Assembly (NCBI GenBank): GCA_028711115.1
Contig: JAQTSV010000001.1
Span: forward strand, 518,032-582,031
DNA: 64,000 nucleotides
Source: Candidatus Omnitrophota bacterium
GTDB lineage: Bacteria; Omnitrophota; Gorgyraeia; Velamenicoccales; JABMQK01
Direction: 5' to 3'
The position numbers were made by a program, and so were the translations under genes. Position 1 is the stretch's first letter, and every line of letters begins with the position of its first letter. The notes beneath the pieces were generated by a model. That model was not told where the DNA came from. It made no database searches and was given only the letters and a program-made list of their open reading frames with translations. Below are positions 735 to 39,600 of the stretch, one piece after another.

Positions 735-1415
735 ATGATTAAAGCAAAAATTAGCGATATCTTTGTCAGTATCCAGGGCGAAGGCAAATATCTTGACCAG
801 GAACAGTGCTTCGTAAGATTTTATGACTGCAGTTTAAAATGTGATTTCTGCGATACAAAAATTTATACCTTTCAGGAATATACGCCTGTTGAATTGATAG
901 ATAAGATAAAAAGTGTAATTGGCAAAAGGAATATAAAGTCTATTTCCATAACCGGAGGAGAACCGTTAGAGCAGCGGGATTTTCTTCTGGAATTTCTTCC
1001 CAAATTAAAATCCGAATGCTTTGAGGTTTATCTTGAGACCAACGGAGTGCTTGTCGATGAACTGTTTGATGTCATAGAACATATCGACGTAATCTCTATG
1101 GATATTAAGCTCCCCAGTTCTACCAAACAAAAGTCTTTCTGGCAGGAGCACAAAGAATTCCTAAAAATCGCCAAAGGCAAGGATGTTTTTGTCAAGACCG
1201 TAATTTGCATTGATACGACATGGGAAGATTTTAAACAGGCCGTGGATCTGGTCTGTAAAATAAATCCCGCGATAACTTTTGTCTTGCAGCCGAATTCCGA
1301 GCAGCTGGGCAAAGAGCTGGCTGAGAAATTGCACGAATTTAAAAAATATAGCAAAGACTACCTTTCAGATGTGAGAGCGATTCCGCAGATTCATAAAGCG
1401 ATGGGAGTGAAATGA
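735..1415 (+). CDS. queE: 7-carboxy-7-deazaguanine synthase QueE (radical SAM)
   Basis: N-terminal SIQGEG motif and a Cys triad CSLKCDFCDT. Starts 1 nt after the queC stop. Confidence 0.85.
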   Translation: MIKAKISDIFVSIQGEGKYLDQEQCFVRFYDCSLKCDFCDTKIYTFQEYTPVELIDKIKSVIGKRNIKSISITGGEPLEQRDFLLEFLPKLKSECFEVYLETNGVLVDELFDVIEHIDVISMDIKLPSSTKQKSFWQEHKEFLKIAKGKDVFVKTVICIDTTWEDFKQAVDLVCKINPAITFVLQPNSEQLGKELAEKLHEFKKYSKDYLSDVRAIPQIHKAMGVK

Positions 1416-1819: not shown

Positions 1820-2637
1820 AAAGAATAAATAGTAATATTATAACCAAAACAATAATTAATCTTTGCGTAGAAGCAAATTTGAATTTGCGCCGTGATGTTT
1901 TAAGCGCGCTTAAGTCGGCTTGTCGCAAAGAAAATAATTCACGGGCAAAAAATATTTTAGGAGATATCATTCAAAATGCCGCAATTGCCAGAAAAGAACG
2001 CCTGGCGATTTGTCAGGATACTGGTATGCCTTTAGTTTTTGCAGAAATCGGTCAGGATGTAAAAATAATCGGCGATTTAAAGAAAGCAATAAATAAAGGC
2101 ATAGATAAAGGCTACAAAAAAGCAAGTTTAAGAAATTCTATAGTAGGCGACCCGTTATTAAGAGGAAATTCTAAATATTCTCCGGCAGTAATTCACATTG
2201 ATTTAGTCAAAGGTAATAAATTAAAATTGACAGTCTTGCCAAAAGGTTTTGGCTGTGAAAATAAAAGCGCATTAAAGATGTTTAATCCCACTGTAAGTAT
2301 AGATGAAGTAGGGAAATTTATCATCAATACAGTTAAAGCTGCAGGCCCAAATGCCTGTCCGCCTTATGTAGTTGGCGTAGGAATTGGCGGGACAGCAGAT
2401 TACGCGTGTTTATTAGCAAAGAAGGCATTATTGAGAAAGATCCGAAACCCAAAATCCAAATTAGAAAAAGATTTATTGGCCAGCATAAATAAATTAAACA
2501 TTGGACCAATGGGTTTAGGCGGAGACACAACTGCGCTAGCCGTAAATATCGAGACTTACCCGACACACATTGCGGGCTTGCCCGTAGCGGTAAATATTTC
2601 CTGCCATGCGCTTCGCAGTGCAACAGAAGTTTTATGA
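1816..2637 (+). CDS. Fe-S type hydro-lyase, alpha subunit (class I fumarate hydratase / tartrate dehydratase family)
   Basis: Motifs CQDTGMP and GVGIGGT are typical of the class I fumarase N-terminal domain. Overlaps the beta subunit gene by 4 nt. Confidence 0.8.
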   Translation: MKRINSNIITKTIINLCVEANLNLRRDVLSALKSACRKENNSRAKNILGDIIQNAAIARKERLAICQDTGMPLVFAEIGQDVKIIGDLKKAINKGIDKGYKKASLRNSIVGDPLLRGNSKYSPAVIHIDLVKGNKLKLTVLPKGFGCENKSALKMFNPTVSIDEVGKFIINTVKAAGPNACPPYVVGVGIGGTADYACLLAKKALLRKIRNPKSKLEKDLLASINKLNIGPMGLGGDTTALAVNIETYPTHIAGLPVAVNISCHALRSATEVL

Positions 2638-3161
2638 GAAGAATATCCACGCCACTCACTAAAGAAATAATCAAAACTTTAAGATGCGGCCAGGAAATTT
2701 TATTAAGCGGTACAATTTATACCGCACGCGACCAGGCGCATAAAAGATTAAGAGAGGCAATCAAGAAACACAAAAAGCTGCCTTTTGGTCTGAATAATCA
2801 GATTATTTATTATTGTGGTCCGACAAATACGCCCAGAGGAAAGATTATCGGCTCCTGCGGCCCCACGACAAGTTCGAGAATGGATTCTTTTACGCCTTTA
2901 TTGCTTAAAAAAGGATTAAAAGGAATAGTCGGCAAGGGCGAGCGTTCCCGAGAAGTTGTAGGAGCAATTAAAAAATCCAAGGCGGTTTATTTCTTGGCGC
3001 CGGCCGGATGTGGAGCATTATTAGCAAAAAAAGTGAAAAGCTCAAAAATAATCGCCTATAAAGACTTGGGCCCGGAAGCGATTAGAAAATTAGAAGTAAA
3101 AGATTTTCCTTTAATTGTAGGAATTGATTCGCAAGGAAGGAGCGTTTATGCTGCGCAGTGA
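2634..3161 (+). CDS. Fe-S type hydro-lyase, beta subunit (class I fumarate hydratase C-terminal domain)
   Basis: [16 protein letters not shown] and GPTTSSRMD motifs. Translationally coupled to the alpha subunit. Confidence 0.8.
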
Positions 3162-3864
3162 CGGAAGAGGACTGGACAAGTTAAGAAAAGTTAGCATAAC
3201 AAGAAATTATATAAAGTATGCCGAAGGTTCTTGTTTGATAGAATTGGGTAATACCAAAGTGATATGCACAGCGTCCGTTGAGGAATCCGTGCCGCCATTT
3301 TTAAAAAACACCGGCACAGGCTGGGTGACAGCCGAGTATGGAATGCTTCCGCGTTCCTGCCAGACGCGCATTCAGCGCGGAAAAGATTCAGGCAGGACTT
3401 ATGAGATTCAACGTTTGGTGGGCCGCTCTTTACGCACAGTTACAGAAATGAAATTCCTGGGTGAGCGCACAATCTGGCTTGACTGCGATGTAATCCAGGC
3501 AGACGGCGGCACGCGCACCGCAAGCATTACCGGAAGTTTTATCGCCTTGGTCGATGCGCTTTACAAAATAAAAAAGGATGGCTTAATCGGCAAAATGCCT
3601 CTGAAGGATTATGTGGCTGCGACAAGCGTTGGTATCGTCGACAATAATTTATTGCTTGATTTGAATTACGAAGAAGATTCCAAGGCGCAGGTCGATATGA
3701 ATATTATTATGACCAGCCAAGGAAAATTTATTGAAATCCAGGGGACCGCAGAAAGAGAACCTTTCTCCAAAGAAGAGATGGACAAATTACTGGTTTTGGC
3801 ACAACAGGGAATCGGGCAATTAATCGATGTCCAGAAACAAGCCGTAGGAAAATATTTGGAATAA
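3148..3864 (+). CDS. rph: Ribonuclease PH
   Basis: [29 protein letters not shown] and [17 protein letters not shown] motifs. I prefer the ATG at 3148 (RBS GGAAGGAG) over the track start at 3124. Confidence 0.9.
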
Positions 3865-3869
3865 AATAA

Positions 3870-4493
3870 ATGATTAAGGAATTAGTCGTAGCCACGCGTA
3901 ACAAAAAAAAGTTAGAAGAAATAAAATACATGCTAAAGGATTTGAATTTTATGATTACATCTTTAGCTGATTATGATAATCTTCCCAAAATAATTGAAGA
4001 CGGCCTCACCTTCAAAGAGAATGCCATAAAGAAATCCGCCACAATCGCCCAGTATCTTGGAAAATTCACCTTAGGCGAGGATTCGGGATTGGAGGTGGAG
4101 GCATTAGGTAACCGGCCCGGTGTTTATTCGGCCAGATATTCCGGCAAAAATTCCACCGATAGAAGAAATAATCAGAAGTTACTCAAAGAATTAGCAAAAG
4201 TTCCTCTAAAAAAGAGAAAAGCAAAATATACCTGCAGCGTTGCTGTTTGTGACAGCCATGGATTGTTAGGAGTTTTTGAGGGGACCTGCCGAGGCATTAT
4301 TGCCAGTCGCGAAAGAGGACAGTTCGGCTTTGGTTATGATCCTATATTTCTTATACCGAAATATAATAAGACGTTTGGAGAGTTAGGAGAAGGAATAAAA
4401 CATAAGATGAGCCACCGTTATAAGGCTTTTGTAAAAGTACGCAACTTTATTCTTGGTCTTGACCGCCAAAGATTAAATCCGCAACACCTTTAA
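3870..4493 (+). CDS. rdgB: dITP/XTP pyrophosphatase (RdgB/HAM1 family)
   Basis: Motifs VATRNKKKLEE, EDSGLEVEALGNRPGVYSARY and FGYDPIF. Its 3' end overlaps the convergent gene by 47 nt. Confidence 0.85.
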   Translation: MIKELVVATRNKKKLEEIKYMLKDLNFMITSLADYDNLPKIIEDGLTFKENAIKKSATIAQYLGKFTLGEDSGLEVEALGNRPGVYSARYSGKNSTDRRNNQKLLKELAKVPLKKRKAKYTCSVAVCDSHGLLGVFEGTCRGIIASRERGQFGFGYDPIFLIPKYNKTFGELGEGIKHKMSHRYKAFVKVRNFILGLDRQRLNPQHL

Positions 4494-7198: not shown

Positions 7199-7274
7199 CG
7201 GGGAGTAGCGCAGTTTGGTTCAGCGCGTTTGGTTTGGGACCAAAAGGTCGTGGGTTCGAGTCCCACCTCCCCGA
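7199..7274 (+). tRNA. tRNA-Pro (anticodon TGG)
   Basis: Manual cloverleaf: CGGGGAG/CTCCCCG acceptor, GCGC D-stem, anticodon stem TTTGG/CCAAA with loop TTTGGGA, T-arm GTGGG-TTCGAGT-CCCAC. 76 nt, no encoded CCA. Confidence 0.85.
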
Positions 7275-7376: not shown

Positions 7377-8291
7377 ATGGAGCCAAGAAATCCAGAGACA
7401 ACAGGGAATAATATTTACCGGATAAATCCGCTAAAATATCTTGTTTTTTTATTTATAGCTATAATTTTAAGCATTTCTTTTCCTGCTCAGCTTAGGGCAG
7501 ATTGTCGTCTTTGGGCTGCAGTTTCCCGTGATAAAATACCCGAGGAAGTGACGCTGGACCAGCTTTTAAGGGCGCCCCGTTCTTTAAAAGTCTTGGGAGC
7601 ATTTAATAGGGACGGCTGGGGAATCGGATATTATCTTGGCAAAGACGCATTGCTTATAAAAGGAATGCTCTCTGCGGATAAGGATGAGAAATATAATCAA
7701 GCGGTAATAAAGGTAGCCCATCTTGAGCCCAAGATTATTGTGGCGCATGTAAGAATAGCAGTTTCCGGATGCAGGAACAATGCGGTGAATCCGCATCCTT
7801 TCACGAGAGATAAGGGCGGCAAGCATTGGCTTTTCGGTCACAACGGTATCGTCGGCAAAGCAAAACTAATTGATCTTATCGGAGACAAATATTTAAAGGC
7901 CAATCCTCCCAATACTTGCACTTATGATCCGCCGGATTCTTGGGTGGGTTCTGAACTGTATTTCATTTTCTTGCTTAAATGTATCGAAGAAAGCAACTGG
8001 GATGTGGAGAAAGGTATAAAAAAAGCTATTTCTATATTGGAATCTGTGGTACGCAAGGGCAATTTAGGGTTCAATTTCTTTCTCACAGACGGCGAGACGA
8101 TTTGGGCTTTTCGTAAAGGGCGCTCGCTTTATTATTACTATCAGTCGTCTCCTCAATATTCAGTGGTGGCGTCAGAATGCCCCTATGCTGATAAGGGGAA
8201 ATGGACAGAGGTTCCCGAGGGGTCTTTGGTTATAATGAAACCAGGAGCCCCTGTAGTTTTGAAATCGATCTCTGCGCCCGTAGCTCAATAG
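7377..8291 (+). CDS. Class II (Ntn-type) glutamine amidotransferase-like protein with an N-terminal signal/anchor
   Basis: Hydrophobic segment YLVFLFIAIILSISFPAQLRA is followed directly by CRLWAAVS, the position of the nucleophilic Cys in class II GATases. HNG motif (FGHNGIV). The last 18 nt overlap tRNA-Arg. Confidence 0.5.
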   Translation: MEPRNPETTGNNIYRINPLKYLVFLFIAIILSISFPAQLRADCRLWAAVSRDKIPEEVTLDQLLRAPRSLKVLGAFNRDGWGIGYYLGKDALLIKGMLSADKDEKYNQAVIKVAHLEPKIIVAHVRIAVSGCRNNAVNPHPFTRDKGGKHWLFGHNGIVGKAKLIDLIGDKYLKANPPNTCTYDPPDSWVGSELYFIFLLKCIEESNWDVEKGIKKAISILESVVRKGNLGFNFFLTDGETIWAFRKGRSLYYYYQSSPQYSVVASECPYADKGKWTEVPEGSLVIMKPGAPVVLKSISAPVAQ

Positions 8292-8347
8292 GACAGAGCA
8301 TCTGCCTTCTAAGCAGAGGGTTGCCCGTTCGATTCGGGCCGGGCGCG
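8274..8347 (+). tRNA. tRNA-Arg (anticodon TCT)
   Basis: Manual cloverleaf: GCGCCCG/CGGGCGC acceptor, GCTC/GAGC D-stem, TCTGC-CTTCTAA-GCAGA anticodon arm, GCCCG-TTCGATT-CGGGC T-arm. 74 nt. Confidence 0.85.
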
Positions 8348-10436: not shown

Positions 10437-10512
10437 GGTGGGTGTAGCTCAACTTGGTTAGAGCACTTGACTGTGGCTCAAGTGGCTGCGGGTTCAAATC
10501 CCGTCACCCACC
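10437..10512 (+). tRNA. tRNA-His (anticodon GTG) with encoded G-1
   Basis: G(-1)+GTGGGTG/CACCCAC acceptor with discriminator C, CTTGA-CTGTGGC-TCAAG anticodon arm, GCGGG-TTCAAAT-CCCGT T-arm. Confidence 0.9.
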
Positions 10513-29946: not shown

Positions 29947-30036
29947 GAGCCTCAAATAAGTTAAACCCGTAAATCCGCTACGGGTTTTTTATTTGCTTAA
30001 GCTGTGTGGGAATAAACTGTCCCCTTGCCGAATATT
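29947..30036 (+). repeat. Copy 2 of the roughly 90-nt structured intergenic repeat
   Basis: See 10588-10679. Hairpin AAACCCGTA-aatccgc-TACGGGTTT + T6, then GGGA-ataaactg-TCCC. Confidence 0.6.
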
Positions 30037-30124
30037 TCTGTCCTTATTTAATGGAGATACCTCTTGAGATATTAATTGAAAGTAGTATAATATTATCATA
30101 AAGAAATAAAAGTTAATAAGCGGT

Positions 30125-30208
30125 CTGGAAATGCGAGAGTATTTCCGGAGGGTTATTTAGATGGTCGGGCCGCCATCTTGCATGTGAATGTGAGATGACG
30201 GTTTTTTT
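30125..30208 (+). promoter_or_regulatory. Riboswitch-like attenuator, copy A (5' hairpin, conserved GATGG-TCGGGCCG-CCATC hairpin, overlapping terminator)
   Basis: CTGGAAAT/ATTTCCGG hairpin, then AGATGG-TCGGGCCG-CCATCT. The competing terminator is CCGCCATCT..AGATGACGG + T7. Lies immediately upstream of the MscS RBS. Confidence 0.5.
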
Positions 30209-30224
30209 AAAAGGAGTAATAAAA

Positions 30225-31277
30225 ATGAATATTTTTTCGGTGTCTTCTTTTCAATATTTATTTGAAATCTTGATTCCCGCTTCAATATTACTAATAACCC
30301 TAATCTTCGGGTTTATTATAAGAAAGATTATTTTTGCCCGGCTTAACCGTTGGTCAAGACATACCAAAACCCAGGTCGACGATATTATTATAGATTCAAT
30401 AAAAGGGCCGTTCATAATCTGGTTTTTGATGCTGGGTATTTATTTTGCCCTTGAATATTCAAAACTTCCGGAAAATTTAGTTCATATAATTGACAAATTC
30501 TTGCTTGTATTGGGTATTTTTTCTATTACCTTTGTTTTGGCCAATATCTCGGCTAAATTGATTAGTGTATATTCCCGTAAAGTTGAAACTGCCCTGCCGG
30601 TTACTTCGCTTACCCAAAACATCAGTCGCATAATTATATTTACGATTGGAATCTTGGTAGTCCTCCATAGCTTAGGGGTTTCTATAACACCAATCTTGGC
30701 TACTTTGGGAGTAGGCGGTTTGGCAGTGGCATTGGCTCTGCAAGATACTCTTTCAAATCTTTTTTCCGGATTTTATATTATCGTATCCAAACAAATTAAA
30801 ATAGGTGACTATATAAAATTGGATTCAGGGGAAGAGGGATATGTTACGGATATTACCTGGCGCACAACCAAGATAAAAATGCTGCCTAATAATGTCGTTT
30901 TGGTTCCCAATGAGAAGCTAACCAAAGCTATAGTGACCAACTATTATCTTCCGGATAAAGAGATGGCGGTTTTAGTCAATTTAGGGGTTCACTACAAAAG
31001 CGATTTAAAGAAAGTAGAAAAAATTACCTGTGAAGTTGCCCGGGAGGTAATGAAGGAAGTTCTGGGAGGAGTGCCGGAATTCGAGCCGTTTATACGTTAC
31101 GGCAGCTTTGCAGATTCCAGCGTTAATCTTACTGTAATTTTAAGAGCCAAGGAATTTGTTGACCAGTATTTAATAAAACACGAATTCATAAAGAGGCTTC
31201 ATGAGCGTTATGCCAAAGAGGGCATTGTGATTCCTTATCCGATAAGAGCAATAAATTACGGACAAGAGAAAGAATAG
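30225..31277 (+). CDS. Small-conductance mechanosensitive channel (MscS family)
   Basis: N-terminal TM helices, then the pore/beta-domain signature LGVGGLAVALALQDTLSNLFSG..IKIGDYI. The ATG at 30225 (RBS AAGGAG) is preferred, because the track start at 30195 lies inside the terminator stem. Confidence 0.8.
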   Translation: MNIFSVSSFQYLFEILIPASILLITLIFGFIIRKIIFARLNRWSRHTKTQVDDIIIDSIKGPFIIWFLMLGIYFALEYSKLPENLVHIIDKFLLVLGIFSITFVLANISAKLISVYSRKVETALPVTSLTQNISRIIIFTIGILVVLHSLGVSITPILATLGVGGLAVALALQDTLSNLFSGFYIIVSKQIKIGDYIKLDSGEEGYVTDITWRTTKIKMLPNNVVLVPNEKLTKAIVTNYYLPDKEMAVLVNLGVHYKSDLKKVEKITCEVAREVMKEVLGGVPEFEPFIRYGSFADSSVNLTVILRAKEFVDQYLIKHEFIKRLHERYAKEGIVIPYPIRAINYGQEKE

Positions 31278-33509
31278 ATGAGACGATTACTCATATTTAT
31301 TTTGCCGATTTTAATTATCGTTGCCATTGGGTTTACGGTATTTGGCATTATGCAGATCCGTTTTACTCAGGATAAATTTATGGATGACCTTCAAAGGAAA
31401 GCCAGGTCTGTGGCTGAGGGAATAGAGTTTTCTGCTAAGGCAATCCTTATAAATAATGACTTAAAGTCAGCAGGCCGCCTTGTGGAAACTTTTCAGAGGA
31501 GGGAAAGGCTGCAGGGATGCGTTATTTATGACAGGGAAGGCAAAGTCCTCGCGATTACCGAAAGATTTTCTGACTGGAGAGAACAGGAAAGGCCGTATCT
31601 TAAAGATATATTGGTTAACAAAACTCCACGCGGAGCATTGGAGAATTTTAAAGATTATTCGGTATATAGCTATATTATCCCTGTAAGCGATGATGAAAAT
31701 AACATTTTAGGCATGGTCGAAGTCATTTATGATACTTCTTATGTCCTTACAACTATGGCTGATCTTTGGAAGCGCTTAAGCATATCCTTGATATCCCTGC
31801 TGGTCTTTATAGTACTGATTATGCTTTTAATCCAAAGGCAGATTTTTGTTCTGCCTGTACGCAGACTCACTCAGTGGTTTACTCATTTTCAAAAAGGAGA
31901 AATCGAAAAGTTAAAACCTTTTGAAGAAAAGGGCGAGTTCGGAAAGCTGGTAAGCGAGGTCGAACAGGTCGCCTTGGGCTTAAGGGTTGCGCGCAAGGTT
32001 GTTACCGAAGAAGCGCACGTTCGTATTAAAGAGGAATTATGGACAGAAAATAAGCTAAGGGATCTCATTCACACTAAATTAGGAGAAAATGCCTTCTTTG
32101 TGGTTTCGAACCGAGAGCCTTATATGCATGTTCTAGATGATATAACAGGTGCGCCTAAATGCATCCGGCCGGCAAGCGGCGTTGTTACCGCAATAGACCC
32201 AATACTGCGCGCCTGCGGTGGAACGTGGATTGCACATGGAAGCGCCAATGCGGATAAAAAGTTTGTGAATTCCAAGAATAAGCTCGGCGTACCGCCAGAA
32301 GATAATCGCTATATCCTAAAGAGGGTATGGCTGACCAAAGAAGAAGAAGATGGATATTACTATGGTTTTGCCAATGAAGGGTTATGGCCGCTTTGCCATG
32401 TTACGCATACCCGGCCGATATTCCGGGAAACTGACTGGCAGATGTATAAAAAAGTTAATCAGAAATTTGCCGATAGTGTTTTAGAAGAGCTTCCGGCAAA
32501 GAATCCGTTTATTTTTATTCAAGACTATCATTTTACATTGCTTGCCCAGATGATTAAGGAAAAGAGACCGGATGCAACAATAGCTTTATTTTGGCATATT
32601 CCCTGGCCTAATCCGGAGGTTTTCGCGATTTGCCCTTATCAGCAGGAGATTCTTGATGGAATGCTGGCTTGCGATTTAATTGGATTTCATGTGCAAGTCC
32701 ATTGCAATAACTTTTTGGATACTGCAAACAGGCTGATTGAATGCCGCGTTGATACCGAAAAGTTCAGCGTCGTCAGGGCAAATAAGGAAACATTTATCAG
32801 GGCTTTCCCGATTAGCGTTGACGGATATATGAGCGCTGATTCGGTCAAAGCTGAATTCGGTCAAATAGATAAAATCCGCCAAGAATTTCAATTGCAGGAT
32901 AAGCTGGTTGCGGTGGGAGTAGATAGGATTGATTATACCAAAGGCATAATTGAAAGGATACTTGCTATCGATAGATTTCTGGAGAAATACCCGGAATATA
33001 AAAACAAATTTGTATTTATTCAACTAGCTGCTCCGAGTAGGACTCATATTAAGCGGTACCATGAGCTTATAGGAGAAATTGATGAGCTGGTGGAAAAAAA
33101 GAACTGGAAATATTTGGATGGAGACTGGAAGCCGATAATTTACCTAAAAAGGCATTTTTCACCGGAAGATATAAAGCCGTATTATTTGCTTGCGGATCTT
33201 TGTATTGTAAGCTCTTTGCACGATGGAATGAATCTAGTTGCAAAAGAATATGTAGCATCAAAAACTGATTTAAGCGGCAGTTTGATTTTAAGTCGTTTTA
33301 CCGGGGCTGCTAGGGAATTGACGGATGCGGTTCAGATAAATCCCTATTCAATAGAAGAATTTGCTGATGCAATAAAACTTGCTATTGAAATGCCCCCTGC
33401 GGAAAAAAGAAAACGCATGGTAAATATGCGAAAGATTGTTTCCGAAAACAATATTTATCGTTGGGCAGGCAATATTATTACGGAATTGACCGCGCTAAAA
33501 AAAGTTTAG
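31278..33509 (+). CDS. otsA: Trehalose-6-phosphate synthase (GT20, OtsA) with an N-terminal TM-sensor-TM-HAMP extension of about 270 aa
   Basis: GT20 core motifs are present (VVSNREPY, FANEGLWPLCH, IQDYHF, LFWHIPWP, GVDRIDYTKG, SSLHDGMNLVAKEY). The N-terminus has two TM helices and a HAMP-like linker. Confidence 0.85.
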   Translation: MRRLLIFILPILIIVAIGFTVFGIMQIRFTQDKFMDDLQRKARSVAEGIEFSAKAILINNDLKSAGRLVETFQRRERLQGCVIYDREGKVLAITERFSDWREQERPYLKDILVNKTPRGALENFKDYSVYSYIIPVSDDENNILGMVEVIYDTSYVLTTMADLWKRLSISLISLLVFIVLIMLLIQRQIFVLPVRRLTQWFTHFQKGEIEKLKPFEEKGEFGKLVSEVEQVALGLRVARKVVTEEAHVRIKEELWTENKLRDLIHTKLGENAFFVVSNREPYMHVLDDITGAPKCIRPASGVVTAIDPILRACGGTWIAHGSANADKKFVNSKNKLGVPPEDNRYILKRVWLTKEEEDGYYYGFANEGLWPLCHVTHTRPIFRETDWQMYKKVNQKFADSVLEELPAKNPFIFIQDYHFTLLAQMIKEKRPDATIALFWHIPWPNPEVFAICPYQQEILDGMLACDLIGFHVQVHCNNFLDTANRLIECRVDTEKFSVVRANKETFIRAFPISVDGYMSADSVKAEFGQIDKIRQEFQLQDKLVAVGVDRIDYTKGIIERILAIDRFLEKYPEYKNKFVFIQLAAPSRTHIKRYHELIGEIDELVEKKNWKYLDGDWKPIIYLKRHFSPEDIKPYYLLADLCIVSSLHDGMNLVAKEYVASKTDLSGSLILSRFTGAARELTDAVQINPYSIEEFADAIKLAIEMPPAEKRKRMVNMRKIVSENNIYRWAGNIITELTALKKV

Positions 33510-33527
33510 AATCTAAGGAGTGAAAAT

Positions 33528-33998
33528 ATGCAGGTAAAAGAGGTGATGTCAAAAGAAGTAATTACCGTAAAACGCTCCACGACTCTAAAGCGGCTGTTGG
33601 AGATATTTGCTAAGTTTCATATATTTCCTTTGGTGCCTGTGATCGGAGAGGATAATCTTCTTATAGGCATTGTTTCTTTCCGTAATCTCGTTAATGTATT
33701 CCAGTTGCGTCAGCCAGAAATACTGAAAGCCGTACCTTTTTTGGATGAGGGAGAGGAAGACATATTCAAAGTAGAGTTTACTGAAGAGATAGGTAGCTTA
33801 GTGGTGGCTGAAGATATTATGGAAAATAAGTTTATCACTATACAAGAAGACGCTTCTTTAGAAGAGGCCTATAAACTGATGAAGTTGCACCTTAAAGAAG
33901 AATTTCCTGTGGTTGATAGATTCGGAAAATTAGCAGGAATGATTGGTATATTTGATATCATCCGGTATGTTTTTCGTCACAGAGGCGTTATTAAATGA
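33528..33998 (+). CDS. CBS-pair domain protein
   Basis: Two CBS-like units (VKEVMSKEVITV...PLVPVIGEDNLLIGIVS and AEDIMENKFITIQ...FPVVDRFGKLAGMIG). Confidence 0.75.
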   Translation: MQVKEVMSKEVITVKRSTTLKRLLEIFAKFHIFPLVPVIGEDNLLIGIVSFRNLVNVFQLRQPEILKAVPFLDEGEEDIFKVEFTEEIGSLVVAEDIMENKFITIQEDASLEEAYKLMKLHLKEEFPVVDRFGKLAGMIGIFDIIRYVFRHRGVIK

Positions 33999-35188
33999 AT
34001 ACAATCTTAGGACTCGGTTTTATTCTGCTTATAGGTTTATTTTCAGCCCGACTGATAAACAAAATCAAGTTTCCCGCAGTAACCGCCTATCTTTTATCGG
34101 GCATTCTTATTGGGCCATCGGTTTTTAAACTCATTCCGAATGATGTTATAAGTGCTTCAGGTTTAATTTCCAATATAGTCTTAGGCATAATTGCCTTTGG
34201 CATAGGTCAGAATTTTTCCAGAGATAACTTCCGCAAGATCGGCAGATCAGTTATTTGGATTTCGGTCCTAGAGGCTTGTGGTGCCTGGATTTTTGTTACT
34301 TTAGTATTTTTAATTATCTTAAGGCAGCCTTTTTATCTTTCTCTTTTATTTGGAGCACTTTCCTCAGCTACTGCCCCCGCAGCAACCGTAATGGTTATTA
34401 GGGAATACCGCGCCAAAGGAAATTTTACCGATACACTTTTAGGCGTAGTTGCGATTGACGATGCCTGGTGTCTTATCATATTTGCAATTTCATTGGCAAT
34501 ATCGCAGGCCATATATGCGCATATGTTAGCCACCTTTTTCTTGATAAAAGTATTTTTAAATTCCATCTTAAGTATATTTGGCGCCTTTATTTTAGGAGGC
34601 ATTGTAGCGACGTTGTTGGCTTATCTTTCTCGATACCTGCGCACGCAGACAGAGCTCTTAATTTTTACTCTGGGATTCGTTTTTTTGAATATAGGGATTG
34701 CTATCTGGTTGAATCTATCAGTGCTTTTAGCAAATATGTTTTTGGGAGCGACGTTAGTTAATATTAATAAATCTTCGTTTAATTTCTTCGATAGCATAAA
34801 AACACTTGATCCACCGCTGTTTCTACTTTTCTTTGTTTTAGCAGGAGCAAATTTAGAGATAAGTATTCTGGGTAAATTAGGCTTAATTGGTTTGGTATAT
34901 CTTATTTTTAGAGTTATGGGGAAGATGATAGGTGCTGGTATCGGTGCTCGTATTTCGGGCGCCTCCAGAAGTATAAAGAGGTATTTAGGATTGGGTTTAG
35001 TGCCTCAGGCCGGAGTTGCATTGGGTTGCGCCCTCATTGCCAAAAATGATTTTCCCAACGTAGGAAGCATGATTTTTACCACTATTATTGCCACCACAGT
35101 TATTTATGAATTGATCGGCCCCTTGTGCACAAAATATGCGTTACAGAAAGCAGGAGAGATACTTATTGAGCCTCCCAAAAATATATGA
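33995..35188 (+). CDS. Cation:proton antiporter (CPA/Na+-H+ exchanger family membrane domain)
   Basis: About 11-12 TM segments. N-terminus (GLGFILLIGLFSARLINKIKFPAVTAYLLSGILIGP) is typical of KefB/NapA-type exchangers. 4-nt overlap with the CBS gene. Confidence 0.7.
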   Translation: MNTILGLGFILLIGLFSARLINKIKFPAVTAYLLSGILIGPSVFKLIPNDVISASGLISNIVLGIIAFGIGQNFSRDNFRKIGRSVIWISVLEACGAWIFVTLVFLIILRQPFYLSLLFGALSSATAPAATVMVIREYRAKGNFTDTLLGVVAIDDAWCLIIFAISLAISQAIYAHMLATFFLIKVFLNSILSIFGAFILGGIVATLLAYLSRYLRTQTELLIFTLGFVFLNIGIAIWLNLSVLLANMFLGATLVNINKSSFNFFDSIKTLDPPLFLLFFVLAGANLEISILGKLGLIGLVYLIFRVMGKMIGAGIGARISGASRSIKRYLGLGLVPQAGVALGCALIAKNDFPNVGSMIFTTIIATTVIYELIGPLCTKYALQKAGEILIEPPKNI

Positions 35189-35973
35189 AAAATCTTTTTA
35201 GGCACTGGGATAATTTGGAAAAAGAGTTAAGCAATAAGTATATTATGCTATTTTTAGATTATGATGGTACCTTGACTCCTATTGTTAGTACGCCAGAAAA
35301 GGCATTTATTTCGCGAGAAGTAAAGGAATTGCTGATCGGATTATCAAAAAGCCCCAAGTGCAAATTAGCCATTATTAGCGGCCGGGCCTTAAAAGATATT
35401 AAGAATATTATAGGATTAAAGAATATTATTTATTCCGGAAATCATGGATTAGAAATAGAAGGGCCAAAGATTAAGTTTGAACCTTTGGTTTCTCCAAAAT
35501 ACAGGATGATTTTAAGGCACATAAAAAACAATTTGCAGCAAAAAATATCTTATATCCGGGGAGCCTTTGTAGAAGATAAAGGGTTTTCTTTGAGCCTACA
35601 TTATCGCTTGGTAGATAAAAAACAGATTCCGCAAATTAAAACAATCTTTCATGAAACAGTAATTTCATATCTTGTGTGCAATAAAATAAAGATTAAACCC
35701 GGGAAAATGGTTTTAGAAATCAGGCCTCCTATAAAATGGGATAAGGGCAGGGTGGTCTTATGGCTTTTGACAAGACAGATTTTCGCTGCCCAAAAAGGTA
35801 TGGTCTTTCCGATTTATATAGGGGATGACGCTACCGATGAAGACGCATTTAAGGCATTAAAGAATAAAGGGTTGACTATATTTGTGGGCAAGCCCAAAGA
35901 ATCTTACGCACAATACTATTTAAAGAATCCGAAGGAAGTAGTTGGTTTCTTAAGAAGAATATCAGAAATATAA
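35185..35973 (+). CDS. otsB: Trehalose-6-phosphate phosphatase (HAD family)
   Basis: LFLDYDGTL (DxDGT nucleophile motif), ISGR and YIGDDATDEDAF. Confidence 0.85.
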   Translation: MKNLFRHWDNLEKELSNKYIMLFLDYDGTLTPIVSTPEKAFISREVKELLIGLSKSPKCKLAIISGRALKDIKNIIGLKNIIYSGNHGLEIEGPKIKFEPLVSPKYRMILRHIKNNLQQKISYIRGAFVEDKGFSLSLHYRLVDKKQIPQIKTIFHETVISYLVCNKIKIKPGKMVLEIRPPIKWDKGRVVLWLLTRQIFAAQKGMVFPIYIGDDATDEDAFKALKNKGLTIFVGKPKESYAQYYLKNPKEVVGFLRRISEI

Positions 35974-35980
35974 ACGAGAT

Positions 35981-36652
35981 ATGCCCGAATTAATAAAAGC
36001 AAAAGAGCCGTTTAAGTTTTGCACGAGATTACACTTATCAGAGTTGACCGGATTGCGAGCCACCAACTTGGGCCAGCTTTTGGCTCTTATCAAGGAAGTG
36101 TCCGGTTCATGCATTTATCACCATACCCATAGATTCCTGCAACAGCACCAGTTCCTTTCTCCGGAGCCCCCTAATGACTTTGCTTACTGGGTAACGGATA
36201 CTCTGGGAGAAGATGAGCTTGGGGAAAGGCTGGTTAGTATTGATACAATTCAATATTCAACTATCCGGGATTTGCGCGAAGAGATTGCCTTAACCATTGA
36301 AAACTATCTGAATGATAACCCATTGGCCAAATTGAAATTTGCCAAATCAGGGGAAGAGTTTCATTTTATTAAGTCAGTAAGTTTTATTCTGCCGACAAAC
36401 TATATTGTTTATGATTTAAAGGAGTTTGTGGAGATTCTAAAGAAAATCACCATTGATTCTATTTATTTTCATATTTTTGAAGCGCGCTTAAGGCTTGAGA
36501 AGCCGACTAATGACTTTTCATTTTGGATAGAAAACTCTTTAGGCGATAAAGAATTGGCGCATAAGATTTCCGGTTTTGATCCCTATACCCTCACATTAGA
36601 GGATTTAAGAAATAAAATTATACAAATAGTTGAAAGAAGGATAGCTGGCTAG
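35981..36652 (+). CDS. Uncharacterised protein made of two homologous halves
   Basis: Half 1 reads F.F...HLSELTG..A.NL.QLL.LIKEV...SIYHH...FL......P.NDFAYWV.DTLGEDELGE.L. It repeats as FHF...ILPT.Y.V.DLKEFVEILKKI...SIYFH.FE..L....PTNDFSFWIENSLGDKELA.KI. Confidence 0.4.
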   Translation: MPELIKAKEPFKFCTRLHLSELTGLRATNLGQLLALIKEVSGSCIYHHTHRFLQQHQFLSPEPPNDFAYWVTDTLGEDELGERLVSIDTIQYSTIRDLREEIALTIENYLNDNPLAKLKFAKSGEEFHFIKSVSFILPTNYIVYDLKEFVEILKKITIDSIYFHIFEARLRLEKPTNDFSFWIENSLGDKELAHKISGFDPYTLTLEDLRNKIIQIVERRIAG

Positions 36653-37867
36653 ATGGCAAGAATAGAAGAATATATCCCTTTGGTAGGGCAGGCTGTTATT
36701 GACGATTTGAGATTGCTCGGCGAGCGGTTAAAGGGCAAGGTCATCCAGCATATAAATTCTACCCCTGTGGGTGGCGGAGTCGCCGAGATATTAAACCGCA
36801 TGATTCCCTTATTGAGAGAATTGGGTGTGGATACAAAATGGGATGTTATAAAAGGCGGAGAGCAATTTTTTGATGTGACAAAGAAGTTCCATAATGCCCT
36901 GCATGGCAGAGCTGAAGAGATAACTCAAAGGGATTTTGAAATATTTTTGGAAACAAGCCAGCAGAATATCGAAAGCGTTGATACCTGCGAAGACATAGTT
37001 TTTATCCATGATCCGCAGCCAATAGCCCTGATAAAAAAGAAATCCTCTAATAAATGGCTTTGGCGCTGTCATATTGACGTGTCTAATCCTAATGAAAGAG
37101 TTTGGGGATTTCTTAGAGATTTTATCGTTCAATACGATTCAGCAGTATTTTCTGCTCCTGTTTTCTCACGGAAGTTGCCTATTAGACAATTTTTGATTCC
37201 TCCTTCCATTGACCCTTTAAGCGATAAAAATAAAGAATTACCTCAGGAAACAATAAATTCTGTCTTGAGAAAATACGATATCAAAAAAGATAAACCAATT
37301 GTCATTCAGATATCTCGCTTTGACCGCTTGAAAGACCCAATAGGCGTAATCGAAGCATATCTACAGGTTAAAAAATATATTAATTGCCAGTTGGTTTTAG
37401 CTGGTGGCACCGCAGAGGATGATCCGGAAGGATTTAAAGTTTTAGGGGAAGTCAAAGAAAGAGCCAAGAGCGACCCTGACATCCATATTTTACTATTGCC
37501 ACAGAATGATTTGGAGGTTAACGCATTACAAAGGGCATCAGATATAATTGTTCAGAAGTCTCTCAAGGAAGGATTCGGTTTAACGGTTGCAGAGGCTTTA
37601 TGGAAAGCAAAACCTGTTGTAGCTTCAAATGTCGGGGGTATTCCTTTGCAAATAAAACATAAATATTCAGGATTGTTGTGTCATTCCGTCGAAGGAGCCA
37701 GTTTCGCCATAAAACAATTCCTAAGCAGTCCCGAATACGCCAAAAAATTAGGAGAAAATGGGCGTGAACATATAAAAAATAATTTTTTAATTACACGTCA
37801 TTTAAGAGATTATATGTTATTGTTTCTTTCTTTATATCATCCTGAAGATATTGTTCATCTGTGTTAA
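36653..37867 (+). CDS. treT: Trehalose glycosyltransferring synthase-like GT4 glycosyltransferase (TreT-like)
   Basis: The N-terminus (HINSTPVGGGVAEILNRMIPLLRELGVDTKWDVIKGGEQFFDVTKKFHNALHG) closely resembles archaeal TreT as I recall it. The GT4 C-terminal E(x7)E region is present (KEGFGLTVAEALWKAKPVV). Confidence 0.7.
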   Translation: MARIEEYIPLVGQAVIDDLRLLGERLKGKVIQHINSTPVGGGVAEILNRMIPLLRELGVDTKWDVIKGGEQFFDVTKKFHNALHGRAEEITQRDFEIFLETSQQNIESVDTCEDIVFIHDPQPIALIKKKSSNKWLWRCHIDVSNPNERVWGFLRDFIVQYDSAVFSAPVFSRKLPIRQFLIPPSIDPLSDKNKELPQETINSVLRKYDIKKDKPIVIQISRFDRLKDPIGVIEAYLQVKKYINCQLVLAGGTAEDDPEGFKVLGEVKERAKSDPDIHILLLPQNDLEVNALQRASDIIVQKSLKEGFGLTVAEALWKAKPVVASNVGGIPLQIKHKYSGLLCHSVEGASFAIKQFLSSPEYAKKLGENGREHIKNNFLITRHLRDYMLLFLSLYHPEDIVHLC

Positions 37868-37960
37868 TTTATGGTATGGAATTTTGAAAAACTAAAATCC
37901 CAGCCACTGAAATTCGTTTAAAAGTTATTGTAGATAAATTTTTTTGTTAATACAAGGGTT

Positions 37961-38035
37961 CGGAAGTTTCTTATTTCCGGAGGATTTGTGATGGTCGGGC
38001 CGCCATCTGGCTTTGTAAGCCAGGTGGCGTTTTTA
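37961..38035 (+). promoter_or_regulatory. Riboswitch-like attenuator, copy B
   Basis: CGGAAGT/ATTTCCG hairpin, then GATGG-TCGGGCCG-CCATC. The competing terminator is CGCCATCTGGCT-ttgta-AGCCAGGTGGCG + T5. Lies upstream of the first mini-ORF. Confidence 0.5.
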
Positions 38036-38053
38036 TTAATAAAGGGAGAGAGT

Positions 38054-38152
38054 ATGGATAGGACAATGTGGTTTATATTTATAATAATGGGAGTATGTAT
38101 TTTGGCGGGGATATTATGCGTAATTTTTACAATTACCCATAATATTGGATAA
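38054..38152 (+). CDS. 32-aa single-TM mini-protein
   Basis: My translation: MDRTMWFIFIIMGVCILAGILCVIFTITHNIG. RBS AAGGGAGAG. Not in the ORF track because it is under 60 aa. Confidence 0.4.
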   Translation: MDRTMWFIFIIMGVCILAGILCVIFTITHNIG

Positions 38153-38163
38153 GGAGGAGTGGA

Positions 38164-38298
38164 TTGAAACCGGGCAATTGGATACTTATGATAATTTTGT
38201 GGGCTTGTATTTTGAGCCCCCTGATTTTTTTTGTTTTAGATAAATATTTTAAGAGGAAAAGTTGGATTAATTATAAGTTTGCAAGAAGGAGAGGATAA
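38164..38298 (+). CDS. 44-aa single-TM mini-protein (TTG start)
   Basis: MKPGNWILMIILWACILSPLIFFVLDKYFKRKSWINYKFARRRG. Perfect AGGAGG lies 6 nt upstream of the TTG. Confidence 0.4.
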   Translation: MKPGNWILMIILWACILSPLIFFVLDKYFKRKSWINYKFARRRG

Positions 38299-38300
38299 AA

Positions 38301-38435
38301 ATGTTAAAGGTAGATCCCGTGAATATCTTTGTATTTATTATAGTTGTTGTCTTTCTTTCTTTCGTTATCTATGTTGCGGTTCAGGGCAGGATTGAAGAAC
38401 GAAAGGGCAAAAAGGAACAGGAAAATAAAAAGTAA
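38301..38435 (+). CDS. 44-aa single-TM mini-protein
   Basis: MLKVDPVNIFVFIIVVVFLSFVIYVAVQGRIEERKGKKEQENKK. RBS AAGGAGAGG. Starts 2 nt after the previous stop. Confidence 0.45.
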   Translation: MLKVDPVNIFVFIIVVVFLSFVIYVAVQGRIEERKGKKEQENKK

Positions 38436-38500
38436 AGGAATAGGTGCGCATTGAAGCGATATCCTGAACATTAAAGCGGATTAAGAAATAGGAGATATGG

Positions 38501-38599
38501 ATGTCAGTAGGAATATGGCAACAATTAGGAGCATTGGTTCTTGCGGTTTTGTTCTCGCTATTATTTAATTCTATGAATAGTAGAGGATCAAGAAGATAA
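38501..38599 (+). CDS. 32-aa single-TM mini-protein
   Basis: MSVGIWQQLGALVLAVLFSLLFNSMNSRGSRR. RBS AGGAG. Confidence 0.35.
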   Translation: MSVGIWQQLGALVLAVLFSLLFNSMNSRGSRR

Positions 38600-38866: not shown

Positions 38867-38958
38867 TTGACAATTCGGGAAAACATGCTATACTTTCTAT
38901 AACAATGAAGTTTAGTTAGGCAAAGAAGCCCCAAAATAAATTTGGGGTTTTCGCATTT
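38867..38958 (+). ncRNA. Candidate short transcript: sigma70-like promoter followed about 35 nt later by an intrinsic terminator
   Basis: TTGACA (38867) - 16 nt - TATACT (38889). Terminator CCCCAAA-ataaa-TTTGGGG + TTTTCGCATTTT (38929-38958). Confidence 0.3.
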
Positions 38959-39087
38959 TAGGGACAAAGACGCCCTTTTTAGAGCAGAGAATGCTTTGAA
39001 AAGGGTTTAATTTTTTTATAGACAGAGGCGTCTTCTATCCAATGGCGGGATGAGGACGCCTTTTCTTTTTTAAAATGGCGGTAAAAT

Positions 39088-39600
39088 ATGGATTTTAAAA
39101 TATTGTTAGAGAAAATAACACCCGCGCTTAAACATATCGCACGCAAACACTTGTTCCGTGGTTTTTACAGCGAGGAAGACCTTTATCAGGAGATGTGCCT
39201 TTATCTGTGGCAACATTACGGACAAGGACTGCCCATAGGTATAAATGAGGCCTATGTAATCAAGGGATGCGAATTTCATATACAGAATTTCCTGAGAAAA
39301 GGAAGACCAAGGGTAATGCTCTCGAGCCTTGATGAGCTTATAACCCCTGAAGGGCTGACGCTGGGCGATATCCTCGAAGATAAAAAAGAGGATTTTCGTT
39401 CAGGCGTAGAAAACAAGCTTACGGTTGATGAAATAATAAATTTGGGTTTAAGCGATAGAGAGAAATCGGTACTTTTTTGCCTGCTTAAAGGACAGACGGT
39501 GCGTGAGGCAGCGAAGGAGTTGGGAGTTTCGCATGTTATGATTTTAAAGTACAAAAAGAGCATAATAAAAAAATGGCGCAAAAGAGGTTACCAAAGATAA
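39088..39600 (+). CDS. Sigma-70 family (ECF-like, regions 2 and 4) RNA polymerase sigma factor
   Basis: Region-2-like EEDLYQEMCLYLW. C-terminal HTH LSDREKSVLFCLLKGQTVREAAKELGVSHVMI. Confidence 0.65.
   Translation: MDFKILLEKITPALKHIARKHLFRGFYSEEDLYQEMCLYLWQHYGQGLPIGINEAYVIKGCEFHIQNFLRKGRPRVMLSSLDELITPEGLTLGDILEDKKEDFRSGVENKLTVDEIINLGLSDREKSVLFCLLKGQTVREAAKELGVSHVMILKYKKSIIKKWRKRGYQR

Follow-up and report, generated by a model that had tools for sequence, protein, structure and literature searches.

Two nhaA-I family RNAs of Na+-II-like architecture precede an osmoadaptation operon and a cluster of small membrane peptides in an Omnitrophota genome

Two leader elements on the plus strand of a 64,000-nucleotide stretch of Omnitrophota DNA (contig JAQTSV010000001.1, referred to here as the window) were assigned to the nhaA-I RNA family. 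Both are best explained as cation-activated ON switches acting via transcription antitermination, with Na+ as the most likely ligand and with the second element probably reached by read-through from the operon behind the first; the probability of this reading is put at roughly 80%. The window offers a clean natural case of two Na+-II-like, terminator-type switches in one organism. The first element (copy A) is located in front of a complete osmoadaptation operon encoding a mechanosensitive channel, two trehalose routes and a cation/proton exchanger, while the second (copy B) precedes a cluster of small membrane peptides.

When the whole window was compared to Rfam 15 with cmscan at gathering threshold, three tRNAs and two other hits were obtained, both to RF03057 (nhaA-I). 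Copy A was matched at 30121-30178 with 48.5 bits (E = 1.6e-6) and copy B at 37956-38008 with 52.2 bits (E = 2e-7), in each case across model positions 1-55 of 55 and above the gathering score of the family (37 bits). Besides nhaA-I, a permissive Rfam rescan of 30050-38100 returned just noise, with no other family and no DUF1646 (Na+-I) RNA at E <= 10. A third nhaA-I copy was found in the window neither at E <= 1 nor by a pattern search with three mismatches. A preliminary description of this DNA had listed the Na+ and Li+ classes among those it considered, had judged that none of these fits convincingly and had named a confident Rfam hit as the outcome that would make the element a known one; since such a hit was obtained for both copies, the claim of novelty fails. 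Judged by these full-length matches, both elements belong to the nhaA-I (Li+-I/Na+-II) family known from earlier work, with a real structure and no new class. The discovery of a new riboswitch class does not stand, and standard Rfam annotation detects both copies. The nhaA-I motif was discovered by Weinberg et al. 2017 (PMC5737381) and validated as the Li+-I riboswitch by White et al. 2022 (Sci Rep 12:19145, PMC9646797), who gave the name Na+-II to rare terminator-bearing variants. The literature searched for the time after 2022 contained no additional study of nhaA-I or Na+-II; a paper on P. putida uses "NhaA-I" as a protein name only. The copies are best filed as nhaA-I RNAs with a Na+-II-like architecture and lower P1 and a Li+-I-like U54.

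Both copies share the aptamer plan of the Na+-II riboswitch of Desulfobulbus propionicus, which consists of GGGU, P1, AGG, a U-rich linker and a P2 hairpin with a CGGGCC loop. The copy A aptamer (30121-30178, plus strand) begins with CGGU at the conserved 5' (G)GGU position (30121-30124), followed by P1 (CUGGAAAU/AUUUCCGG, 30125-30148), AGG (30149-30151), a U-rich linker of 7 nt (GUUAUUU, 30152-30158) and P2 (AGAUGGU-CGGGCC-GCCAUCU, 30159-30178, loop at 30166-30171). Folded alone, it adopts P1 and P2. The copy B aptamer (37956-38008, plus strand) is composed of GGGU (37956-37959), P1 (37960-37980), AGG (37981-37983), a linker of 6 nt (37984-37989) and P2 (37990-38007, loop at 37996-38001). P1 is an 8-bp helix in both copies, following CGGU in copy A and GGGU in copy B, and the P2 common to both, GAUGGU-CGGGCC-GCCAUC, fits the family pattern GG(U/C)-CGGGCC-GCC. 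The published mutant M2, in which GG of the AGG is changed to AA, abolishes function, and M1 and M3, which affect P2, weaken or abolish it (PMC9646797); the residues changed in M2 (GG of AGG) and M3 (CG of the loop) are intact in copies A and B.

The aptamers are followed by intrinsic terminators as expression platforms, both on the plus strand. That of copy A (30170-30208) comprises the stem CCGCCAUCUUGCAU-GUGA-AUGUGAGAUGACGG at 30170-30201 and seven T residues (30202-30208), behind which AAAGGAG and the ATG of the first gene (30225) are located. In copy B (38001-38034), a 13-bp stem (38001-38029) and five T residues (38030-38034) are followed by GGGAGAG and an ATG at 38054. The two-locus architecture given in the preliminary description (5' hairpin, AGG, U-rich linker, identical 19-nt block and overlapping terminator) is present in the sequence in all its parts, but both elements had been started four bases too late, so that the conserved (G)GGU was left out. 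Upstream of copy A, the preceding gene ends in a bidirectional terminator (29963-29987). Between this terminator and copy A lies a sigma-70-like candidate promoter on the plus strand (30064-30091; TTGAGA, 16 nt, TATAAT), proposed from its consensus match alone (11 of 12 positions), which would place the transcription start of copy A at about 30098-30100.

The 19-mer GATGGTCGGGCCGCCATCT has exactly two occurrences in the window and none in 100 dinucleotide-preserving shuffles, even when as many as three mismatches are tolerated, and the leaders fold more stably than shuffled sequences (z = -4.7 for copy A and -4.5 for copy B). Among related loci, riboswitch, position and downstream genes are kept at 70-80% nucleotide identity in five cases (L032, L096, L076, L090 and L211). 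Taken with the Rfam E-values from the whole window, these observations leave hardly any room for a chance resemblance or a degenerate relic, in which ordinary terminators and leader structure would have no regulatory role.

At least 120 GTDB species representatives carry the exact P2 18-mer in its U54 form. They belong to many phyla and groups, among them Omnitrophota, Acidobacteriota, Verrucomicrobiota, Planctomycetota, Elusimicrobiota, Myxococcota, Syntrophales and Nitrospirae, a taxonomic spread far exceeding the proteobacterial classes named in PMC9646797. The full nhaA-I layout is present in about 109 of the 124 occurrences among the matches listed, in samples that are small, stem from different collections and represent one exact P2 sequence. 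According to the lowest two base pairs of P1, the related loci split in two. The GC type (GGGU-GC…GC-AGG) is found in GC-rich taxa and, among the matches listed, almost never carries a terminator, while the Y type (GGGU-YC/CU…GR/AG-AGG) includes both window copies and D. propionicus. Terminator presence was rejected as a subtype marker, because it follows genome GC content and is confounded with it: among the matches listed, all 34 loci below 55% GC are of the Y type, 33 of them with a terminator, and at 55% GC or more a terminator is present in 4/20 Y type and 2/45 GC type loci.

In 56 Y type relatives, P1 is paired in 96.7% of cells compared to 72% in shuffles. The covariation score of 0.888, counted over pairs of which 1-4 are imposed by the selection filter and 5-7 are free, is opposed to 0.358 for shuffled sequences; none of 500 shuffles reached it, and slid controls gave 0.15-0.30. 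The pairs were counted on arms set by the GGGU and AGG anchors. A MAFFT alignment of the whole aptamer was discarded and no covariance model was made from it, as P1 and linker were misaligned owing to their variable lengths.

The same description had raised the alternative that the conserved block is a DNA operator (AGATGG-N8-CCATCT), which would be bound by a dimeric repressor. In a related version, the hairpins would be bound by a protein or an sRNA, the terminators would be constitutive and the RNA would sense no small ligand. The block is indeed an imperfect inverted repeat. Its strictly conserved part, however, is the asymmetric loop CGGGCC and not the palindromic arms, which vary in other members (e.g. 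GUUAGC/GCUAAC and GCGUUGG/CCAACGC). The covariance model is matched over its full length including P1 and linker, the element is always found on the sense strand in a 5' leader, behind the promoter and ahead of the start codon, and the compensatory changes in P1 keep the structure while the sequence varies, which is not expected of an operator. Since direct binding of Li+ or Na+ by the RNA alone has moreover been shown for family members (PMC9646797), an operator or a protein-bound hairpin is considered very improbable.

The assignment as riboswitches of the nhaA-I family is also reflected in the geometry of the leaders. The 5' arm of the terminator in both copies takes in the last part of the P2 loop together with the entire P2 3' arm, with overlaps at 30170-30178 (copy A) and 38001-38007 (copy B), and P2 and terminator are therefore mutually exclusive. 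The calculated energies of P2 alone and of the terminator are -7.7 and -15.5 kcal/mol for copy A, -7.3 and -22.1 kcal/mol for copy B, and -5.6 and -26.7 kcal/mol for the D. propionicus leader. The minimum free energy structure of the full leader is the terminator form in both copies, 8-9 kcal/mol more stable than the fold with P2 enforced, and the default state is therefore predicted to be OFF, while a P2 held by the ligand would permit read-through, as in an ON switch. In the proposed mechanism, the nascent leader would fold without ligand into the more stable terminator hairpin, consuming the P2 3' arm, and RNA polymerase would halt in the U tract that follows. A monovalent cation would be bound by the aptamer formed from P1, the AGG/U-rich linker and the GGU-CGGGCC-GCC P2 hairpin. 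The cation-bound aptamer would hold P2, sequester the 5' arm of the terminator and let transcription read through, in copy A into the operon for MscS, trehalose synthesis and Na+/H+ exchange and in copy B into the cluster of small membrane peptides. The D. propionicus riboswitch, which has the same geometry, shows cation-dependent read-through in single-round transcription (PMC9646797, Fig. 5). The suggestion in the preliminary description that a conserved aptamer and a mutually exclusive terminator form a transcription-attenuating riboswitch is borne out by this family member; for the window copies, we infer ON-switch antitermination by analogy to this relative.

Copy A is followed by seven abutting or overlapping genes on the plus strand (30225-37867), whose functions agree with those proposed earlier. 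The first encodes MscS (30225-31277), the second a sensor-fused GT20/OtsA-like synthase of 743 aa (31278-33509) with an N-terminal membrane region, in which Cache- and HAMP-like similarity is weak and falls short of the Pfam cut-offs. A CBS pair (33528-33998), a CPA-type Na+/H+ (cation/proton) exchanger (PF00999, 33995-35188), a trehalose phosphatase (35185-35973), a DUF5752 protein (35981-36652) and a TreT-like synthase (36653-37867) follow. No plus-strand terminator with a strong stem was found inside the operon. NhaA (PF06965) is absent as a target of either copy. Among the matches listed, the window operon is closest to Omnitrophota MAGs, with nucleotide identities of 80% (L032), 79% (L096) and 72% (L076). 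In L076 and L211, the same riboswitch is followed by an operon orthologous to that of copy A; the identities in L211 are 72% for MscS, 76% for OtsA, 61% for OtsB, 77% for DUF5752 and 81% for TreT. The PF00999 exchanger is absent from both orthologous operons and represents a lineage-specific insertion.

Copy B precedes four small open reading frames on the plus strand (38054-38599), each encoding a single-transmembrane peptide and each with a Shine-Dalgarno-like site in front. The first peptide after copy B comprises 32 aa (38054-38152), the second 44 aa with a TTG start (38164-38298), the third 44 aa (38301-38435) and the fourth 32 aa (38501-38599). Searches against Pfam and NCBIfam gave nothing over the cut-offs for these peptides. 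Peptides 1-3 have positional homologues behind the same riboswitch in six related loci (L032, L096, L090, L003, L104 and L036). Since no promoter-like or terminator-like site was found on the plus strand between 37238 and 38001, copy B is probably transcribed by read-through from the operon behind copy A. If so, it would act as the conditional 3' end of this operon and as a second checkpoint.

The genes behind the related loci differ between the two subtypes, with first genes assigned by a simple ORF heuristic. Among the matches listed, NhaA is the first gene in 11/46 GC type loci and DUF5670 in four, while no NhaA was found as first gene in 57 Y type loci. Instead, MscS (seven loci), GT20/OtsA (six) and Band_7/HflK (five) are found there among the matches listed, together with GpgS (glucosyl-3-phosphoglycerate synthase), NqrE, DapB, a Ca2+/Na+ antiporter, CPA2 and many membrane peptides of 30-60 aa. 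By these annotations, the Y type regulon is one of Na+ and osmotic stress and overlaps the regulon reported for Na+-I riboswitches. The ionic or osmotic signal guessed at in the preliminary description is reasonable. Likeness to the Na+-I (DUF1646) RNAs extends to the two-hairpin layout, the terminator competing with P2 and, by inference for the window copies, the ON switch, as well as to the regulated genes, which serve Na+ transport and osmoprotection and include dapB. They nevertheless form a different family, as their conserved nucleotides in the lower P1 and the P2 loop differ from those of the window copies; membership of either copy was ruled out by the missing match at E <= 10.

Most nhaA-I RNAs have U at position 54, while the Na+-II riboswitch of D. 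propionicus has C (PMC9646797). Position 54, located by means of the M4 template (Supplementary Table II of the same paper), is the 3'-terminal base of the P2 5' arm, adjoining the CGGGCC loop, and corresponds to T30165 in copy A and T37995 in copy B. Both window copies thus carry U, the state typical of Li+-I, and lack the C54 of Na+-II. The D. propionicus variant shows strong Na+-dependent read-through with a KD for Na+ of about 1.4 mM; its C54U mutant M4 responds to Na+, Li+ and NH4+ and has lost selectivity (PMC9646797). In a metagenome scan with the C54 18-mer, at least 121 occurrences were obtained, of which six are riboswitches and the rest chance matches in GC-rich DNA. All six are of the Y type, with an overlapping terminator wherever the sequence is long enough among the matches listed. 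When the 120 GTDB loci listed were searched by descriptor for further copies with a different P2 stem, only L067 and L077 were retrieved, both with U54, and the position-54 sample is for this reason not unbiased. In front of the orthologous operon, C54 is present in L211 and U54 in copy A and L076, and the HflK-type gene behind the C54 locus L205 is the same as behind five U54 loci. This interchange of U and C before orthologous genes argues for the same physiological signal in both cases. In two C54 loci (L159 and L182), nhaA comes second after the gene of a small peptide, and the regulon split between Y type and GC type is therefore not absolute.

Given the Na+ selectivity of C54 and the response to Na+ retained with U54 in M4, the most parsimonious ligand is Na+. 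By analogy, the physiological ligand of both copies is most likely Na+, under salt or osmotic stress. Li+ or mixed sensing is possible given the lost selectivity of M4, and cross-reactivity with Li+ is probable. With Na+ as the likely ligand, the copies would behave like the Na+-II branch and not like the Li+-I branch. This is in agreement with the base of P1, which reads GGU-CU…GG-AGG in copy A and GGGU-UC…GG-AGG in copy B and corresponds to GGGGU-CC…GG-AGG in D. propionicus, not to the Li+-I consensus GGGU-GC…GC-AGG. The lower P1 was named as a class-discriminating feature in PMC9646797.

In the opposite case, the copies would be true Li+-I riboswitches that selectively sense toxic Li+ and turn on its export by the CPA-type exchanger together with protective functions, the terminator being the expression platform of a low-GC genome. 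This is regarded as unlikely, although several features of the copies conform to it. The GGUCGGGCCGCC core is identical to that of Li+-I RNAs including U54, as in most of them, the covariance-model match exceeds the gathering score, and the use of terminators tracks genome GC rather than subtype. The presumed ON switch for cation-related genes and the association with otsA and mscS are likewise shared with the family. Li+ furthermore affects trehalose metabolism in some eukaryotes, and otsA-associated members were left unassigned (PMC9646797). On the other hand, the gene behind most Li+-I RNAs is nhaA (PF06965/PF07399, Na+(Li+)/H+ antiporters), and their regulation is believed to act on the ribosome-binding site (PMC9646797), while the window copies have terminators, with MscS as the first gene after copy A and a 32-aa peptide after copy B. 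The P1 base GC…GC, invariant in the nhaA-associated subtype, is replaced by CU…GG in copy A and UC…GG in copy B. There is no NhaA in the operon, and the exchanger that would export Li+ is missing from the orthologous operons in L076 and L211, the latter being under a riboswitch with C54, the Na+-selective state. The Y type regulon with MscS, OtsA, GpgS, NqrE and DapB is a classical one for Na+ and osmotic stress.

The Na+-II riboswitch of D. propionicus is among the closest known relatives of the window copies. Beyond the aptamer plan, they share with it the pyrimidine-start P1 base (GGGU-YC…GR-AGG) and an intrinsic terminator competing with P2, an arrangement that gives an ON switch there and presumably does so here, as well as targets other than nhaA. 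Na+-II variants were reported in Deltaproteobacteria only, upstream of hypothetical genes (PMC9646797); this host range is taken as a description and not as part of the definition of the class. Copy B, in front of uncharacterised small peptides, resembles this variant group; copy A is associated with MscS and OtsA. Apart from position 54, differences concern the P2 stem, which is GUUAGC/GCUAAC in D. propionicus and GAUGGU/GCCAUC in the window copies, and the host, which is deltaproteobacterial in the former case and Omnitrophota-like in the latter.

The copies and their relatives bear on a question raised by the discoverers, namely whether nhaA-I RNAs associated with otsA or mscS sense Li+ or Na+. 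In Supplementary Table I of PMC9646797, otsA is listed 16 times, mscS three times and hypothetical genes 171 times downstream of nhaA-I RNAs; the authors considered that the otsA- and mscS-associated members possibly sense Na+ and explicitly left Li+ versus Na+ undecided for the trehalose-associated ones. The distribution of P1 bases described here suggests the lower P1 as a testable sequence rule for Li+ versus Na+ sensing. Tentatively, and with the odds slightly against it, the copies might belong to a large, so far unrecognised branch of nhaA-I RNAs that is defined by the Y-start P1 base and not by C54 and constitutes the true, widespread Na+-II class. If this holds, the Na+-II branch would be neither rare nor deltaproteobacterial but would extend to Omnitrophota, Elusimicrobiota, Planctomycetota, Verrucomicrobiota, Nitrospirota and Syntrophales. 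It would govern a coherent Na+ and osmotic regulon comprising MscS, trehalose and glucosylglycerate synthesis, HflK, Na+-NQR, DapB and several small membrane peptide families. In natural members, U and C would be exchangeable at position 54, and the lower P1 would be the main natural determinant of Na+ versus Li+ sensing. Irrespective of the branch, the nhaA-I family is placed in candidate phyla such as Omnitrophota, where the small peptides linked to the riboswitch represent unannotated candidates for functions in salt stress.

Among the nhaA-I family RNAs with an identical P2 in the related loci from GTDB (L001 to L120) and from metagenomes (L121 to L240), the two lowest P1 pairs divide the RNAs into two types. 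The regulon of the GC type consists of NhaA and DUF5670, and that of the Y type, to which both copies in the window belong, of MscS, OtsA, GpgS, HflK, NqrE and DapB. Across the same loci, the family is carried by many non-proteobacterial phyla, and the occurrence of intrinsic-terminator platforms follows low genome GC and not the subtype. Among the rare terminator-bearing members of the GC type is a Planctomycetota MAG (L067, approx. 928–1062, minus strand), in which two GC-type aptamers are arranged in tandem with about 130 nt between them. Each of these aptamers is followed by a terminator-like hairpin, and the pair is located upstream of an octopine-dehydrogenase-like/NAD-binding gene.

The operon downstream of copy A has an ortholog on a metagenome contig (L211), with the gene order MscS, OtsA, OtsB, DUF5752 and TreT. 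The riboswitch ahead of it, located approximately 1.1 kb upstream of 2259–4493 (minus strand) of this contig, has a C at position 54, the end of the P2 5' arm, where the window copies have a U; therefore, U54 and C54 are exchanged at orthologous loci. The GT20/OtsA-like trehalose-6-phosphate synthase of the window (743 aa) carries an N-terminal extension of approximately 270 aa (31278–32100, plus strand), which contains a membrane anchor and matches CHASE8, Cache and HAMP weakly, no match reaching the Pfam cut-offs. Such a sensor-fused OtsA is encoded by the first or second gene behind the riboswitch in many related loci (e.g. L050, L054, L073, L103, L115 and L211). Positioned between otsA and otsB in the window are the CBS-pair gene and the gene for the PF00999 cation/proton exchanger (33528–35188, plus strand). 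Neither has an equivalent in L076 or L211, whose operons are orthologous in other respects. Within the related loci sampled, tblastn matches to the exchanger were obtained in L064 and L004 only. Both genes look like a lineage-specific insertion into the operon under riboswitch control. Three tRNA genes are encoded on the plus strand of the window (7199–7274, 8274–8347 and 10438–10512), the third of which shares 90% identity with a tRNA adjoining the riboswitch operon in L076, a likeness that hints at conserved synteny.

Downstream of copy B, four consecutive ORFs (38054–38599, plus strand), each preceded by an SD-like site, encode small single-TM peptides of 32, 44, 44 and 32 aa. No family was found for them in Pfam and NCBIfam. 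At least three peptide types (...FIFIIMGVCI..CVIF..TH..., ...GxWIxMIIxW..IL... and ...NWPxY...F.IYA.INS, the last followed by a K/E-rich tail) recur immediately 3' of the same riboswitch in other MAG loci (L032, L096, L090, L003, L104 and L036). Their genes are probably among those that have been reported as "hypothetical" in association with nhaA-I variants. The conserved second ORF (38164–38298) includes a hairpin, GGGCTTGTATTTTGAGCCC, that resembles a terminator and has a T-rich run behind it (38201–38228, plus strand); this may be a coincidence or an internal attenuation point.

Further downstream, a promoter-like site was read from the sequence (38867–38894, plus strand; TTGACA at 38867–38872, a 16-nt spacer and TGcTATACT, the last base of which is 38894). 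Behind this site lies a leader of approximately 180 nt with several hairpins, e.g. GCCCCAAAATAAATTTGGGGT and GACGCC...GGCGTC. Site and leader together (38867–39080) gave no match in Rfam. Downstream of this leader, a small GerE/LuxR-type regulator is encoded (39088–39600).
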